Shown piece by piece: positions 29 to 5,990 of a DNA stretch of 25,507 nt. Source of the DNA: a virus; UHGV virus genome UHGV-0069400; one strand, given 5' to 3'. The translations under genes and the position numbers were made by a program. Under the pieces are notes generated by a model. That model had not been told where the DNA came from and did no database searches. It saw only the letters and a list, made by a program, of their open reading frames with translations. Numbering within the stretch: the stretch's first letter is position 1; every line of letters begins with the position of its first letter.

Positions 29-370
29 ATGGGGGATGCGGCAGAACTTAAGGCTGTGCTTGAGGATGGCGGTATCGCCCGAGTGAAAAAGCAGGATTTG
101 GGAAGCGATGAAATTTCCACACACCTGGAAGCTGGCAAGCTCGTCACAAAGTTGGCTCTCGACTGGCAGAACCGCATTAAATTTACACTGGACCATAACT
201 TCAGCCTTACCAGCGTCAAATTTGCGGATGAATTGCTTGAGCAGAACTCTGATATTGATAGTGAAGATGTTGCGCAGCGACTGGACGCAGATTTCTTCCT
301 GTTAACCAGTGAAATTTCGTGCCTGGTTGATGCTCTGGTAAATGCCCTGGGCGGAGAGGCTAAGCAGTGA
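29..370 (+). CDS. Hypothetical protein, possibly 5'-truncated by the window edge
   Basis: ORF of 113 codons from the first ATG; the frame is open back to nt 2, so the true start may lie upstream of the window. Its TGA stop overlaps the GTG start of the next gene (GTGA). No recognisable motif. Confidence 0.4.
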
Positions 371-3300
371 AAGAGCTGTGCTATGGATCTGTTTGCAGTG
401 GAATTGAAGCCGCGAGTATTGCCTGGGAACCGTTGGGTATGCGTCCGGCGTGGTTTGCTGAAATCGAGCCTTTTCCATCTGCCGTTCTTGCGCTCCGCTG
501 GCCCCATGTCGCCAACCTTGGCGACATGACAAAACTTGCCAAAAAAGTCTTGGCTGGGGAAATCGAATCCCCTGACGTGCTCGTCGGGGGAACACCATGT
601 TTTACCGCGGGGCATATGGTTCTTTGTAAAAATGGTTATAAACCAATAGAAGATGTTTGCCCTGGCGATTACGTAGTCAGTCATCTCGGGCGGTTACAAC
701 AAGTAAAAAGAGTTGGTTCAAAAATAGCTAATACGGGGTTACTTAATGCCGTTGGGCAGCCTTTAGGTATAAGAACAACCAATGACCATCCCTTCCTGGC
801 GGTTCGGTGGAAAGCCCAAAACACCCGGAAAAATGGCACATATTTTAAGAGAGAGTTGTTGTCTGAACCGGAATGGCGAGCAGCATGTGATATGCCGGGA
901 TATCAATGGTGTGCTCTAACTAATTTCAATATTGCATCTCCAGATATTTGTTCTCGGTTCTTGTCTGAAGAACAGGCTATGTATCTTGCGGGCGCTTATG
1001 TTGGCGATGGATATATTAGGAGATGGAGAGGTAAATCTAAGAAGGCGGTTGTTTTTGGCATAAATTGCCAGAAATTGAGAAAGTTTCATTGCCGCATACC
1101 AGAAAACATATTTTCCGTGGCAAGCGAAATCCGAGGGAGCATCAAAGTAACCTTGAATGATACGTGTTATGCCAATTGGCTTAATGAACATTTTGGCGAG
1201 TTAAGCCATGCTAAGCGTATCCCTGCATGGGTGATGTCGCATCCATTGCGTCATGTGTTTTTACAAGGCTATCTTGATACTGATGGGACACCAAGTGGTA
1301 AAGCGGGATTTAGAATTAATAGTGTTAGTCCTGCGCTTGCTTGGGGCGTTGCGGAGTTGTCACAGACTTGTGGTTATGTTTCTTCGGTCAGCTTTATTGA
1401 AGTTGAGCCCAAAAAAGTGATCGAGGAGCGCGTGGTAAATCAACGGAATTATTATCAGGTAACAATCTGCCCGCAGAAATTGTCACGTAAATCAAGATTG
1501 GCTCATGGAATGCTTTTACGAACAGTCAAAGAGTTTAAATCGGTAGGCCTAGATACTGTATACAACATAGAAGTCGAAGGTGATCATTCCTATATCCTCA
1601 ATGGTGCGGTGGTCCATAACTGTCAGGCATTCAGTATCGCTGGATTACGTGGCGGGCTTGATGATGAGCGTGGCGCGCTAACTTTAAAGTATGTGGAGCT
1701 TGCAAATGCAATTGACGACAAACGGGCTGAGTCATTTCTCAAACCAGCCGTTATCGTCTGGGAAAATGTCCCAGGAGTCTTGTCATCGGCAGATAACGCC
1801 TTCGGGTGTTTCCTTGCCGGATTGGCTGGAGAAGATGCGCCATTTGAACCAGGTGATCGACCTGAATCAGGAAAAAGTAACGCGTTCTGGCGGTGGGATG
1901 GCAAAACCGGTTGCCATGCTCCAAAGTGGCCGCAGTGTGGTTGTATTTATGGACCGCAGCGAAAGGTGGCCTGGAGAATCCTTGATGCCCAATACTTCGG
2001 AGTGGCACAACGACGCCGACGCGTGTTTGTTGTCGCAAGTGCTCGAACAGACCTCGATCCCGCAACGGTACTTTTTGAGTTCGAAGGCGTGCGCCGGGAT
2101 ATTGCGCCGAGCCGAAAAAAGAAGGAAATCGCTTCCGCCATTATTGCAAATGGCGCTGCAATCAGTGGCGAAAGCCTAAATCCATGCCTACACGCTGACA
2201 TGCCACCCGGTATGAAATCGACGAAAGCCGTAAACGCTTTCAGGATGGCAGCATTTGGGGAATATATTGACGATGAAACCGCATCGACAGTAAAGGCAAG
2301 AGATTTTAAAGATGCCACTGACCTTGCCGTTTTTAGCAGCACAGGAGCAGGTTTTTGGTCAGAAGGGCATGGTACATTGCGGGCACGTGAGCAAGAAAGC
2401 CATGAGCATCTTGTTACATTGGCTTTTCCTGAGCGTATGAGCGGTACACAACATGCTGCAACTAAGAATACTTCACCATCTCTAATGGCTAAAAGTCCAA
2501 CAGCTGTTTGCTATGAAGTAAGAAACGCAGAAGTAGCTGTCCGCCGTCTTACCCCTGTCGAATGTGAAAGGCTGCAAGGTTTTCCTGATGGACATACGTT
2601 GATCCCGACGGAAAAGCGTAAAAAAGTTAATTCAGATGAACTGGCATATCTTCGCAATCACTATCCAGATTTAAGCGAAGAAGAGGCCGCGATGCTTGCA
2701 GCTGACGGACCGCGTTACAAAGCGATCGGCAATAGTATGGCAATACCAGTAATGCGCTGGATTGGCGATCGGATTACTAAGGCCGTATGTCGGCAGAAAG
2801 AAAGAAGTGAAACAAAAGAGCGAAAAGTTAAACCAGCGGCAGAATTCGAGCGGTCCATATTCAAATGGGCTGGTGGAAAATTTGGTGTTCTGGAACAAAT
2901 CTTTCGCTATTTGCCAGAAGGGAAGCGCCTGATTGAACCTTTTGTTGGTGGCGGAGCTGTCTTCATGAATGCCGGATACCAGGAAAATCTGCTAAATGAT
3001 GTGAATGCTGACCTGATTAACTTTTACAAGACTCTGCAACGCGAGGCGAATTCACTTATCACTCTGGCACATTGTTTCTTCCAGGACTACAACACACAGG
3101 AAGGATACCTGGCAGTACGGAATGCGTTTAACAAACAAGTCTATGATGATTTACATCGCGCAGCGGCGTTTTTGTTCCTGAACCGACATTGTTTTAACGG
3201 ATTGACGCGTTACAACCAGGCCGGTGAGTTCAATGTCGGTTATGGGAAGTATAAAACTCCGTATTTCCCATTGCAGGAGATGGAAGCCTTCCTTGGTGCG

Positions 3301-3654
3301 GAAGGGCGTTCTGAGTTTGTATGTGGTGATTTTGCTGCGGTGATTGAAGCTGCCGGAGAAGGAGATGTCATCTTTTGCGATCCGCCGTATGAACCGCTCC
3401 CAAATACAGAGGGATTCACGAACTATTCCGGTCATGACTTTAAGTTTGAAGAGCAAAAACGCCTGGTGTCTCTGTTGACGGATGCTCATCGCCGAGGTGC
3501 AAAGGTTCTCATTACTAACAGTGGCGCGCCAAACATCAGAGAACTTTATCAGGACAGTGGCTTCAGAGTGGAACCTCTTTTTGCCAGACGTTCTGTGTCT
3601 TGTAAGGGGGACACTCGAGGTGTTGCTCATGACGTTATAGCGATATTGCTCTAA
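367..3654 (+). CDS. dmt: Bifunctional DNA methyltransferase: N-terminal C5-cytosine MTase (interrupted by an intein) fused to a C-terminal Dam-like N6-adenine MTase
   Basis: 1095-codon ORF, GTG start. C5-MTase motifs: motif [12 protein letters not shown], motif IV split as GGTP / intein / CQAFSIAG, then [40 protein letters not shown]-terminal Dam-like domain: [18 protein letters not shown]. Excising the intein leaves 754 aa. The symbol is assigned by analogy with the P1 bifunctional methyltransferase and is from memory. Confidence 0.8.
598..1620 (+). mobile_element. Intein (341 codons) with LAGLIDADG homing-endonuclease domain, inserted in C5-MTase motif IV
   Basis: Starts with Cys ([20 protein letters not shown], block A-like) directly after GGTP. 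Block B TTNDHPF; two LAGLIDADG motifs ([22 protein letters not shown]); blocks [23 protein letters not shown], ending His-Asn followed by +1 Cys (CQAFSIAG). In-frame joining restores [12 protein letters not shown]. The segment looks AT-richer than the flanks by eye. Confidence 0.85.
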
Positions 3655-3674
3655 TAAATTTATTAGTGTAATAT
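3645..3674 (+). promoter_or_regulatory. C1-type operator pair overlapping a sigma70-like promoter
   Basis: ATTGCTCTAATAAATTT at 3645-3661 is a perfect match to the operator consensus and overlaps the methyltransferase stop codon. An inverted, overlapping second site AAATTTATTAGTGTAAT lies at 3656-3672 (2 mismatches). TTGCTC (3646-3651), 17-nt spacer, TAATAT (3669-3674) forms a -35/-10 pair. Confidence 0.6.
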
Positions 3675-3838
3675 CGCCTCAATGAATCGTGATTTATAGA
3701 GCGATTTAGCTGTTAGCCGCGACAGGCGCGGCGGCAAGTATGGCGGGGTAGTGACTCCTTCCCCCTCATGACGCCGAGTTGCCAGGTTGACCATACACCT
3801 AAGTGGCAACACCGAAGTGCGTTACGAGCTTCCAGTTT

Positions 3839-3864
3839 GCCCATCTTCGGGTGGGCGTTTTTTT
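3839..3864 (+). terminator. Rho-independent terminator
   Basis: 7-bp stem GCCCATC/GGTGGGC (one G-U wobble) with a TTCG tetraloop, followed by G and seven T. Confidence 0.65.
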
Positions 3865-4329
3865 CAGGGTTTTCGTCATGGTTAGCGACTTTGCGGCGGT
3901 TTAGAAACTGACCATTAAAGTAAATGCAAACGATGATCTGATGATGGTAGCGGCCTAAGAAGCCAGACGCCACGGGGTATGAGTCGTCCCCCGTCAAAAA
4001 ATCGACCGCAGAGTGTCCCCGTCTGTGTATTAGGGAACGGGGAGGCACAACAGGTAAGGGCGCTGGTGTGATTAACCAGATGAACGAGAAGGGGCCATCT
4101 GTTGGTCAGCGTCCTTTCCTGTTGCGTCTTCTTTTCAGCGTAACAGCGGTGCTTAACAGCACTTTGGGTACAGTTCCACGAATTTACGGGTATATCCCGT
4201 CATGCTGAAAGCGCTAATCACGCTGGAAGCCAGGGTTATGCATCCCCTGTTACCGAATTGCAGCCAGGGCGCGGTGCGCCGAAAAGCATACGGAGGTGGA
4301 AGCCCTCGCCGGAGACGTACCCGGCAAGT

Positions 4330-4405
4330 GATGGTGTAGCTCAGCGGTTAGAGCGGTTGACTGTTAATCAACGGGTCGATGGTTCAAATCCATCCACCAT
4401 CGCCA
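4330..4405 (+). tRNA. tRNA-Asn (anticodon GTT)
   Basis: 76-nt cloverleaf folded by hand: acceptor GATGGTG/CACCATC, D-arm GCTC-AGCGGTTA-GAGC, anticodon arm GTTGA-CTGTTAA-TCAAC, T-arm GATGG-TTCAAAT-CCATC, discriminator G, encoded CCA. Confidence 0.9.
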
Positions 4406-4407
4406 AT

Positions 4408-4483
4408 GCCGGTTTAGCTCAGTTGGTAGAGCGCCTGCCTTGTAAGCAGGATGTCAGCGGTTCGAGTCCGTTAACCGGCACCA
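4408..4483 (+). tRNA. tRNA-Thr (anticodon TGT)
   Basis: 76-nt cloverleaf: acceptor GCCGGTT/AACCGGC, D-arm GCTC-AGTTGGTA-GAGC, anticodon arm CCTGC-CTTGTAA-GCAGG, T-arm AGCGG-TTCGAGT-CCGTT, encoded CCA. Starts 2 nt after tRNA-Asn. Confidence 0.9.
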
Positions 4484-4491
4484 ACACAACA

Positions 4492-4565
4492 GGTAAGGGT
4501 ATTTTGCGACGTCGGAGATCGCCGTGCTTGGCAGAGGGTTCGAATCCCTACGAAGTACCCTTACC
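4492..4565 (+). ncRNA. tRNA-like element lacking a canonical anticodon arm (tRNA remnant or minimal tRNA-like RNA)
   Basis: 74 nt closed by a perfect 8-bp stem GGTAAGGG/CCCTTACC. Contains a D-arm-like hairpin GCGA-CGTCGGAGA-TCGC and a T-arm-like hairpin AGGG-TTCGAAT-CCCT, but no 5-7-5 anticodon arm, and 8 unpaired nt between the T-stem and the 3' acceptor strand. Starts 8 nt after tRNA-Thr. Confidence 0.45.
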
Positions 4566-4711
4566 GTTGTGATGAAGTGCAGCTCTTAGAAGCAACCAGA
4601 AGATAAGCATCTGGCTTCACAACATAAACCGCAGGAACGACCAATAAACGGTAGTCCGTATGGAGAACACCCCGTTGAGGAAGAGGCCTGGCCGGAACCG
4701 TAACCGGCACT

Positions 4712-4803
4712 ACAACGTTGAGAACACTGGCGTAACGGGGTCATATCCCAATCTACGAATAAATGTTGCGTTGCAGCGTGACAACCAGTGTTCTCAACAT
4801 TGT
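4712..4803 (+). repeat. Structured repeat unit 1: 19-bp inverted-repeat stem enclosing a conserved 25-nt core
   Basis: Arms ACAACGTTGAGAACACTGG (4712-4730) and CCAGTGTTCTCAACATTGT (4785-4803), one mismatch. Inner stem CGTA/TACG and conserved core GTAACGGGGTCATATCCCAATCTAC (4732-4756). Conserved GGTGAATGC follows at 4804-4812. Confidence 0.6.
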
Positions 4804-4996
4804 GGTGAATGCACAGGCTGATGTGCCGCAACTACAGTAGTGCGCGCTTTGCGGGGCTTGCTACAACCCTGTGTCGGAGTTCAGCACCGACCATCACAGT
4901 TTGATTCTCTGGCATGAGCATAACGCTGAAATAAGTCCAGTCTGGTGCGGCCCGATCACCCGCCGTTAGCTCCACGAAACGGAGCACGTAACAGGT

Positions 4997-5056
4997 AAGA
5001 GCATTCTCCTGTAACGGGTTCATATCCCAATCTACAGGTCCACCAAGAATGCTCTT
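4997..5056 (+). repeat. Structured repeat unit 2: second copy of the conserved core with different but still complementary stems
   Basis: Arms AAGAGCATTCT (4997-5007) and AGAATGCTCTT (5046-5056). Inner stem CCTGTA/TACAGG. Core GTAACGGGTTCATATCCCAATCTAC (5011-5035), 24 of 25 identical to unit 1. GGTGAATGC at 5065-5073. Confidence 0.6.
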
Positions 5057-5214
5057 TCCGTTGCGGTGAATGCGGCTAAGCGCACGCGGGGAAATGGTTA
5101 TATCTGTCCATTATTTCTCCTTGTTTCCACGTCCACGGTGGATAACCAGCCAAAGGACACCGGGAGGCACCCGGCACCGCAACCTTATTTCCCAACCAGT
5201 AATGAGGTTAATAA

Positions 5215-5914: not shown

Positions 5915-5990
5915 GGCCCTTTAGCTCAGTGGTTAGAGCTGGCGACTCATAATCGCACGGTCACCGGTTCAAGTCCGGTAGGGGCCACCA
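5915..5990 (+). tRNA. tRNA-Ile2 (anticodon CAT, presumably lysidine-modified; elongator Met not excluded)
   Basis: 76-nt cloverleaf: acceptor GGCCCTT/AGGGGCC, D-arm GCTC-AGTGGTTA-GAGC, anticodon loop CTCATAA, T-arm ACCGG-TTCAAGT-CCGGT, encoded CCA. Body resembles E. coli ileX as I recall it; the G1-C72 pair argues against initiator tRNA. Confidence 0.85.

Follow-up and report, generated by a model that had tools for sequence, protein, structure and literature searches.

A tRNA-like element beside tRNA-Thr in phage P1 as one copy of a predicted family of modular RNA hairpins

Introduction

RNase III hairpins, tRNA-like processing signals and RNAs that consist of a tRNA-like domain (TLD) only are kinds of element that are already known, and each has something in common with an element at positions 4492-4565 (+) of a 25,507-nucleotide stretch of virus DNA (UHGV virus genome UHGV-0069400; the whole stretch is hereafter called the window), just downstream of a tRNA-Thr gene. 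In the RNase III hairpins of phages, such as the T7 early sites and those of the lambda N leader, sib and late leader, a bulged intramolecular helix of ~20-22 bp lies between functional units, as it does here. In E. coli, the RNase III dimer has room for about 22 bp of double-stranded RNA and cuts intramolecular stems (PMC6212723). Mitochondrial tRNA punctuation and mascRNA/MALAT1, where RNase P and RNase Z are at work, share with the element a T-arm and an acceptor-like stem, a reduced or absent anticodon arm, and a place within a longer transcript beside genuine tRNAs.

Other systems resemble it in part. In the tRNA cluster of phage T4, the stable RNAs C and D (species 1 and 2) are structured, co-transcribed molecules other than tRNAs, of unknown function, and species 1 can be cleaved by RNase III in vitro. 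The PeSLs of T4-type phages and the Correia elements of Neisseria, which are processed by RNase III, are inverted-repeat cassettes of hyperplastic regions that serve as recombination breakpoints and form long transcript hairpins. YrlA (RF02553), a bacterial Y RNA, is modular: a long stem closes it, and its tRNA-like domain mimics a T-arm and a D-arm but has no anticodon. Finally, the TLD of tmRNA and the phage-borne TLD-only RNA of mycobacteriophage DS6A have, like the element, a 7-bp stem and a T-arm with no anticodon arm (PMC4131195; Hudson, Lau & Williams 2014). That exhaustive survey of ssrA covered phage and plasmid records other than chromosomes and reported the gene there only in mycobacteriophages; from outside that set it added Bacillus phage G and the 'TLD-only' DS6A, and TLD-only RNAs were noted to inhibit tmRNA (PMC4131195).

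Here we report that the element, on the evidence of sequence comparison, is the P1 copy of a predicted modular RNA hairpin family of temperate enterobacterial phages, defined by a covarying helix of ~21 bp and a swappable interior. We found no description of this family, of its tRNA-like core or of the tmRNA-like units that accompany it in the searchable literature, and searches with the arm sequence and for tRNA-like elements of P1 were likewise empty.

Results

Structure of the element

Window positions 4300-4700 are 99% identical to AF234173, that is, to bacteriophage P1. When the P1 annotation is mapped onto the window, the element sits in the leader of the long ban operon and on its sense strand. 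A preliminary description, made from the letters alone, had set it 8 nt beyond tRNA-Thr and closed it with a perfect 8-bp stem. Both features are present: the tRNA ends at 4483, and the middle 5' arm at 4492-4499 (+; GGTAAGGG) pairs with the middle 3' arm at 4558-4565 (+; CCCTTACC). This 5' arm is conserved in the family, and its pair 7-72 occurs as GC, AU and GU. Also as described, a near-canonical T-arm is formed by AGGG (4535-4538), TTCGAAT and CCCT (4546-4549), with a canonical T-loop, and no 5-7-5 anticodon arm forms in the element. Where the earlier fold left 8 extra unpaired nucleotides (4550-4557), it missed an inner stem of 7 bp: the strand CGAAGTA at 4551-4557 (+) pairs with TATTTTG at 4500-4506 (+). 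The closing helix is thus 15 bp, with pair probabilities of 0.91-1.0, and it reaches 21 bp outward past a bulged A at 4491 (+), through an outer 5' arm CACAAC (4485-4490, +) that starts 1 nt past the CCA end of tRNA-Thr and pairs with an outer 3' arm GTTGTG (4566-4571, +). We refer to the whole hairpin, at 4485-4571, as M2. Its minimum free energy (MFE) is -31.6 kcal/mol, compared with -18.5 for the earlier fold, and its folding z scores are -4.1 (74 nt) and -5.3 (87 nt), with 0 of 200 shuffles equally stable.

Inside the helix lie two smaller hairpins and a linker. The D-arm-like hairpin of the earlier fold can be drawn, with GCGA (4506-4509) and TCGC (4519-4522) flanking CGTCGGAGA, and as RNA (GCGA-CGUCGGAGA-UCGC; 4506-4522, +) it has a 9-nt loop containing GG; it falls outside both the MFE and the RNAalifold folds. 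In place of an anticodon arm and variable loop there is a 12-nt linker, CGTGCTTGGCAG (4523-4534, +), with a conserved UUGGYAG tail. The T-arm-like hairpin that follows (AGGG-UUCGAAU-CCCU; 4535-4549, +) is invariant, and both the tRNA-Sec and the mascRNA model align it to their T-arm; its ensemble probability is 0.25 in the window variant and 0.65 in reference P1. Beyond the outer 3' arm comes a conserved single-stranded RTGAAKGC.

Immediately 3' of M2, at 4572-4623 (+), is a conserved hairpin, GAAGCAACCAGAAGATAAGCATCTGGCTTC, that also occurs in lambdoid phages of Salmonella and Escherichia. As GTTGTGATGAAG...CTTCACAAC enclose this hairpin, the outer 3' arm of M2 has an alternative partner downstream.

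No tRNA gene lies at 4492-4565. ARAGORN and Rfam called three true tRNAs in the window and passed over the element; RF00005 (criterion at least 29 bits) gave no match to it even at E<=10, and a covariance-model check of the kind that the preliminary description had proposed returned no normal tRNA. The best weak model matches were tRNA-Sec (14 bits, E=1.9) and mascRNA (14.2 bits against a threshold of 42.5), and both identities were rejected on scores so far under threshold. A T-arm with a GTTCRANYC-type loop does stand beside a 7-bp stem (AGGG-TTCGAAT-CCCT, one A, then the inner stem), and that stem runs 14 bp further. YrlA was rejected as well, as Rfam matched it nowhere on the element and its sole match (19.9 bits, threshold 69) covers true tRNAs. 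The attC sites of integrons have RYYYAAC...GTTRRRY cores, which the arms ACACAAC...GTTGTGR do not fit, though a bulged A is present; no search for an integron integrase went beyond the window.

A family of hairpins with conserved arms

The preliminary description had passed over the membership of the element in a repeat family, which has three sister copies nearby and one copy in lambda. Repeat and arm scans place four copies in the window, all on the plus strand and confined to 4046-5065. M1 (4046-4127, +; CACAACAGGTAAGGGCGCTG...CAGCGTCCTTTCCTGTTGCG), found as inverted repeat I2 and by the arm scan, lies 5' of tRNA-Asn, and comparison with the relative L002 reveals a compensatory change from C-G to U-A. 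M2, with its tRNA-like interior, is followed by M3 (4708-4807, +), which has GTTGAGAA-type arms around the interior GGGGTCATATCCC and was detected as inverted repeat I1 (23 nt, 91% complementary), and by M4 (4987-5065, +; CGTAACAGGTAAGAGCATTCT...AGAATGCTCTTTCCGTTGCG, interior GGGTTCATATCCC), detected through repeats I9, D1 and D3 and the arm scan.

Relatives were gathered by two routes, homologues of TciA and patterns of the arms. The conserved arms, whose consensus is CACAAC(A)GGTAAGRGCAYTG ... CARTGCTCTTWCCGTTGYG RTGAAKGC, enclose interiors of at least 28 unrelated types, with lengths of 30-170 nt. Across 62 distinct arm sequences, 93.9% of cells are paired, a figure that is inflated because module selection demanded pairing, and changes on both sides occur at 17 of the 21 pairs, compensatory changes being free of that inflation. 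None of 500 shuffles matched the observed values, and sliding the register lowered pairing to 34-54%. The outer helix takes part in this covariation (alignment A2, columns 1-6 with 41-46), and relatives thus keep the helix by compensatory changes, which answers the alignment check suggested in the preliminary description. The bulged A is present in most GGTAAG-type copies and is paired to T only in M1-type copies (A2).

The two strands are not equivalent. For the 28 modules in which a pattern matched both strands, the sense strand always gave a more stable fold than the antisense strand (28 of 28), and G.U pairs outnumbered A.C pairs by 102 to 34, a count inflated by the same selection. Together, these sequence comparisons suggest selection on the transcript, or on that one strand.

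Detection of the family depended on arm scans with shuffle controls, which we used instead of an arms-only covariance model (R1, with an artificial GAAA loop): R1 failed to bridge interiors of 30-170 nt, its best hit (18.2 bits) was mis-registered, and it missed M2. An exact 19-mer of the arm had 0 matches in public genome contigs, and a 17-mer had ~80 chance matches there plus one real Escherichia contig. Scanning metagenomes for the arms found only 3, and beyond enterobacterial phage and plasmid records, exact arm patterns gave almost only chance matches.

In L149, a lambdoid contig, a module between Q and the holin gene (2118-2326, +) has a 170-nt interior with a complete type I hammerhead core (CUGAUGAG...CGAAAC...GUC), which scores 24.7 bits with RF00163 (threshold 34; E=5.6e-4), and a tRNA follows 212 nt downstream. 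No other hammerhead core was found among the 46 modules scanned. The L149 hammerhead fits the idea that the interior slot hosts structures that cut RNA or recruit RNases.

Two further features of the window lie at or beside sister copies. At 4690-4710 (+), before M3, the hairpin GGCCGGAACCGTAACCGGCAC resembles a tRNA-Thr with its interior deleted: it keeps the acceptor 5' strand, the T-stem 3' strand and the acceptor 3' strand, and has the 10-mer TAACCGGCAC in common with 4472-4481. At 5062-5181 (+) there is a sub-threshold match to STnc100, a Salmonella small RNA (41.9 bits against 47, E=4e-7), that begins in the 3' outer arm of M4. Here UGCGGUG (5062-5068) can pair with either the M4 5' arm or CACCGCA at 5175-5181, which suggests alternative structures 5' of tciA.

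Conservation of the tRNA-like core

The 44-nt core of M2, CGAYGTCGGAGATCGCC-(linker ...TTGGYAG)-AGGGTTCGAATCCCTA, is near-unchanged both among P1-like plasmids and across contigs of lambdoid prophages, at least 13 in number, where it mostly lies directly after a tR'-like terminator. We aligned 15 sequences or variants of M2-like cores (alignment A3). Their 15-bp closing helix is 94% paired, with both-side changes at four pairs: pair 14-65 occurs as U.G, A-U, G-C, C-G and G.U, and pairs 9-70 and 13-66 carry double changes in lambdoid homologues. The inner stem is always 7 bp and a single A always separates it from the T-stem, giving a tRNA-like 7+5 geometry. Across the 15 variants the D-like hairpin is invariant save one loop base (C or U); with no variation in the D-like and T stems, covariation speaks neither for nor against them. 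The linker is the only variable part of the core (A3 columns 33-47; positions 4525, 4526 and 4530), and M2 as a whole has 5 variable columns in 87 while both of its neighbours get exchanged.

Strict T-arm-like hairpins occur in 3 of the 28 interior types, against 0.07 expected, and in none antisense. The interior of L287 holds another, in a three-way-junction layout like that of M2. Together with the 5 nt upstream, the M2 T-arm matches a FelixO1-type tRNA-Asn at 20 of 21 nt, at an E of 6, and an origin of the T-arm from a tRNA is plausible on this likeness.

Placement at tRNA ends and in operon leaders

All nearby tRNAs are co-oriented with the module. In five tRNA-module pairs (Thr with M2, Thr with M2b, Asn with the Klebsiella type, and Ser with two types), the outer arm begins 0-1 nt past the CCA end or overlaps the CCA. 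The tRNA content upstream of modules varies and includes Asn, Arg, Tyr, Thr and Ser. In other phages, antiterminated operons have modules in their leaders, either between Q and the holin gene or past the repressor region, and module and flanking operon share a direction in 10 of 11 contexts. The exception, L198 (reverse strand, segment 327-990), is a self-contained non-coding unit in opposite orientation between tail genes. It comprises a promoter that resembles those of sigma-70, a tmRNA-like unit whose tag is ANDDVVLMAA, a module of the lambda type, a tRNA that bears the unusual anticodon AAU, and a terminator.

Matches were found in 1039 of 5426 complete E. coli genomes, the best-covered being lambda lysogens. 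In phage lambda itself (J02459), the copy is at 44787-44862 (L296 488-563), 6 nt past the T-run of tR' that ends 6S RNA, and is the longest near-perfect helix in the late leader. It overlaps the annotated orf-64. According to the title of Daniels et al. 1988 (Virology 167:568), as cited in PMC7547250, lambda late RNA is processed by RNase III in vivo. The lambda module is probably the hairpin behind this reported processing. Prophage DLP12 of MG1655 has no family copy, so published K-12 RNase III maps cannot be used for the family.

tmRNA-like tag units in the same leaders

Upstream of the modules, at 3864-4040 (+), the window has an unannotated sequence that resembles the mRNA-like domain of tmRNA. 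Its tag open reading frame (3926-3958; GCA AAC GAT GAT CTG ATG ATG GTA GCG GCC TAA) encodes ANDDLMMVAA*; it opens in a resume-codon context, UAAAU|GCA, and a hairpin comes after it. In Rfam the unit matches tmRNA_permuted at 24.1 bits (E=0.004) and beta_tmRNA at E=0.019, both below threshold, with the coding part being matched; one lambdoid tag unit scores 30.7 bits. ARAGORN finds no tmRNA and no tRNA-like domain for the unit, and RefSeq is without annotation there. Homologues in lambdoid prophages encode the tags ANDDVVLMAA, ANDEQFLAVA, ANDDLMLMAA, ANDDLMLAAA, ANDDQFLAVA and ANDDVVLIAA. All retain 10 codons and a stop, with indels in threes and synonymous changes.

The tag unit is 530 nt upstream of M2, with M1 and two tRNAs between them, whereas in some lambdoid phages the two are adjacent and in others the unit is absent. 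M2-like cores and tag units are co-resident cassettes and not obligate partners. A split tmRNA made of two pieces, M2 and the tag unit, was rejected as the main explanation on the same ground, and also because G3.U70 and CCA are both absent and the pieces do not follow the order of permuted tmRNA genes.

Gene content of the P1 ban leader

In the mapped P1 gene order, dmt comes first, before the C1-controlled Pban promoters (around 3650-3678) and a dicF-like region with an intrinsic terminator (3838-3865). Next come tRNA-Asn (4330-4405) and tRNA-Thr(UGU) (4408-4483, +), the last tRNA of the cluster, whose 3' end abuts M2. Downstream of the element are plp and upl, annotated as minus-strand open reading frames, then tciA/B/C, tRNA-Ile2(CAT) (5915-5990) and, last, ban, a dnaB analogue.

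Together, plp and upl span 4454-5023 (-), antisense to the hairpin modules. In AF234173, plp ('putative lipoprotein') occupies the equivalent of window positions 4454-4831 (-); its frame is broken in the window, where an open reading frame of 81 aa remains (4586-4831), and relatives have a 196-nt indel within it that is not a multiple of 3. No Pfam family was found for Plp or Upl, and the two are probably not genuine genes. P1 and lambda are among the best-studied genomes, and this stretch of P1 still carries two such dubious minus-strand frames. Elsewhere in the window, the bifunctional Dmt methyltransferase (1095 aa; 367-3654, +) has an intein-like insertion at about nt 595-1620, with Pfam Hint_2, LAGLIDADG_3 and weak Intein_splicing matches, within the PCQ motif of the C5-methylase (GTPC|FTAGH...VVHN|CQAFS).

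Discussion

We propose that M2 acts in cis as a punctuation or processing site on the ban-operon transcript, with RNase III cutting in the helix and RNase P possibly acting at the core. This is the explanation we favour, tentatively: it is quite possible while falling short of probable. It starts from the observed structure, the covariation, the strand bias, the fixed position past tRNA 3' ends and the conservation of the core. Under it, the long helix would be a substrate of the host's RNase III, and the minihelix of 7-bp inner stem and T-arm may be recognised by RNase P. Either cut would detach tRNA-Thr, with its CCA 1 nt upstream, from the downstream mRNA, and exonucleases would then finish the tRNA-Thr 3' end. 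The cut would segment the leader as well. As a by-product, the repeated arms serve as breakpoints for cassette shuffling.

The helix, at 6+15 bp with one bulged A, has the size of about two turns (~20-22 bp) expected for RNase III, and its conserved length matches the span of about 22 bp of the dimer (PMC6212723). The preliminary description had offered a processing signal for RNase P/Z as one possibility, of which the idea of processing is retained, while the dominant 21-bp helix suits RNase III rather than RNase Z. RNase P may also act at the tRNA-like core, which keeps its 7+5-bp geometry but has its leader paired to the trailer and no RCCA.

A number of points weigh against this proposal. 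Pairing of leader to trailer normally hinders RNase P. RNase III needs only a helix, which leaves the conserved arm sequence, the bulged A, the RTGAAKGC tail and the core loops unexplained. The T-arm is only marginally stable in the window variant (P=0.25), and RNAalifold favours a D-like loop paired with the T-loop. Other P1-like phages have unrelated interiors at the M2 site (M2b, the L004 type and the L124 type), and a Klebsiella homologue is without the T-loop consensus, so release of tRNA-Thr needs no tRNA-like core. The selection of modules for pairing, which raises the paired percentage and the G.U count, also belongs here. So does the lambda link to RNase III, drawn by inference from a paper's title rather than from read site coordinates. 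Lastly, we infer transcription of M2 (from the Pban operon, on the sense strand), the nuclease that cuts it and the position of the cut.

Two other explanations give the arms or the core a different role. The hairpins may be recombinogenic repeats, miniature inverted-repeat transposable element (MITE)-like or boundary palindromes whose arms are spread by homologous recombination, the RNA being functionless and the core cargo. Indels among P1-like phages start and stop in arms and differ by whole array periods: a 196-nt insertion in L002 is bounded by identical 3' arms, CTTACCGTTGTGATGAA; tRNA-Thr is joined directly to M2b or M3 (L102, L096); the M1 5' arm is joined to the M2b interior, with loss of the tRNAs, in L098; and L016 has an M3/M4 hybrid. 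In addition, the M2 sequence stays constant while both neighbours are swapped, and one sequence is an interior in P1-like phages and a spacer in lambda. Yet orientation always follows the neighbouring tRNAs and almost always the operon, the G.U excess and the greater stability of the sense strand point to selection on the transcript, and homologous recombination needs neither a CCA spacing of 0-1 nt nor covariation that preserves a helix. As no target-site duplications were seen at the flanks and the inverted arms keep a single orientation with the tRNAs, a MITE or mobile palindrome proper was rejected, and we regard the broader repeat explanation as unlikely while still deserving weight. The second explanation is that a core of ~58 nt is excised, accumulates and, in trans, mimics the tRNA elbow or the tmRNA TLD, as a decoy for a host factor that reads the elbow, for example SmpB, RNase P or TruB/TrmA, or for a defence protein that does so. 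The architecture is indeed that of a tmRNA TLD, with no anticodon stem-loop and a 7+5-bp acceptor/T geometry, and invariant core loops beside covarying stems are a signature of sequence-specific recognition. The TLD-only RNA of mycobacteriophage DS6A is a precedent, such molecules inhibiting tmRNA perhaps via SmpB titration (PMC4131195), and tmRNA-like tag units occur in the same leaders, an M2-like core lying at most 450 nt from 6 of the 29 non-P1 units. Against this, the third acceptor pair is U.G (14 of 15 variants) and not G3.U70; no 3' CCA is encoded (C-CC-U in P1, C-UC-U in lambdoid copies); ARAGORN calls no tmRNA, and Rfam gives no tmRNA, YrlA or mascRNA match at threshold. Moreover, 14 of 29 tag units have no nearby T-arm hairpin, which argues against obligate partnership, unrelated interiors replace the core in other P1-like phages, and accumulation of a discrete small RNA is an assumption of this explanation. 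Mimicry, which the preliminary description had linked to evasion of tRNA-targeting defences, thus gains a concrete form as a TLD or elbow mimic and loses that link, as an element without an anticodon arm has nothing to tie it to anticodon-nuclease defences. We hold such a mimic to be rather unlikely, and its extension, in which a core acting in trans (e.g. by SmpB titration) and the tag units would form a P1/lambda-like toolkit for manipulating trans-translation, to be quite unlikely.

The remaining explanations would leave the element without a function of its own. A decayed fourth tRNA, also raised in the preliminary description, would have lost its anticodon arm by internal deletion and be drifting. 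The canonical T-arm, the 20/21 identity to the T-arm region of FelixO1-type tRNA-Asn (E=6), the enrichment of T-arm-like hairpins in interiors (3/28 against 0.07 expected) and the obvious internally deleted tRNA-Thr relic 200 nt downstream (4690-4710) all speak for such an ancestry. Neutral decay is nonetheless improbable, because the 44-nt core is near-invariant while the closing stem compensates, with five pair types at one position of the adjacent stem, unlike a drifting pseudogene; in addition, there is no tRNA covariance score even at E<=10, and the acceptor-like helix is 15-21 bp, not 7. That the hairpin is incidental to a plp coding sequence on the minus strand, as the annotation of AF234173 (window equivalent 4454-4831, -) would have it, is scarcely credible given the broken frame, the 196-nt non-triplet indel in relatives, the lack of a Pfam family and the overlap of the annotated frame with tRNA-Thr.

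If M2 is a cis-acting processing site, temperate enterobacterial phages would share a modular RNA 'socket', made of conserved arms with a bulged A and of a structured interior open to exchange, that punctuates the tRNA and small RNA cassettes of antiterminated operons. This would account for the release of a phage cluster's last tRNA from a long mRNA and, with the arms as breakpoints, for the free variation of tRNA content in P1-like phage-plasmids. As to the RNase III sites that have been reported for the lambda late leader, the lambda module is a candidate that can be tested. The core and the tag units together raise the question of whether these phages interfere with trans-translation or with factors that bind the tRNA elbow.

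Comparison with the systems named at the outset sets the family apart in several respects. A family copy itself lies in the lambda late leader just after tR'. The family differs from the RNase III hairpins of phages in that the arms are conserved across unrelated phages, the interior can be swapped and M2 has a tRNA-like core, and its cutting in P1 is a prediction. Compared with mascRNA, M2 scores 14.2 bits against 42.5, pairing of leader with trailer lengthens its helix to 21 bp, and it has no CCA/discriminator pattern. From the tmRNA TLD it is distinguished by the lack of a G3.U70, an ACCA end and any ARAGORN or Rfam tmRNA call, and by not being the obligate partner of the tag unit. YrlA gives no Rfam match on M2. 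Unlike PeSLs and Correia elements, the family has no target-site duplication, keeps one orientation, has variable interiors and is fixed at tRNA 3' ends. The RNAs C and D of T4, to which we liken it by description, are not a repeat family with conserved arms.

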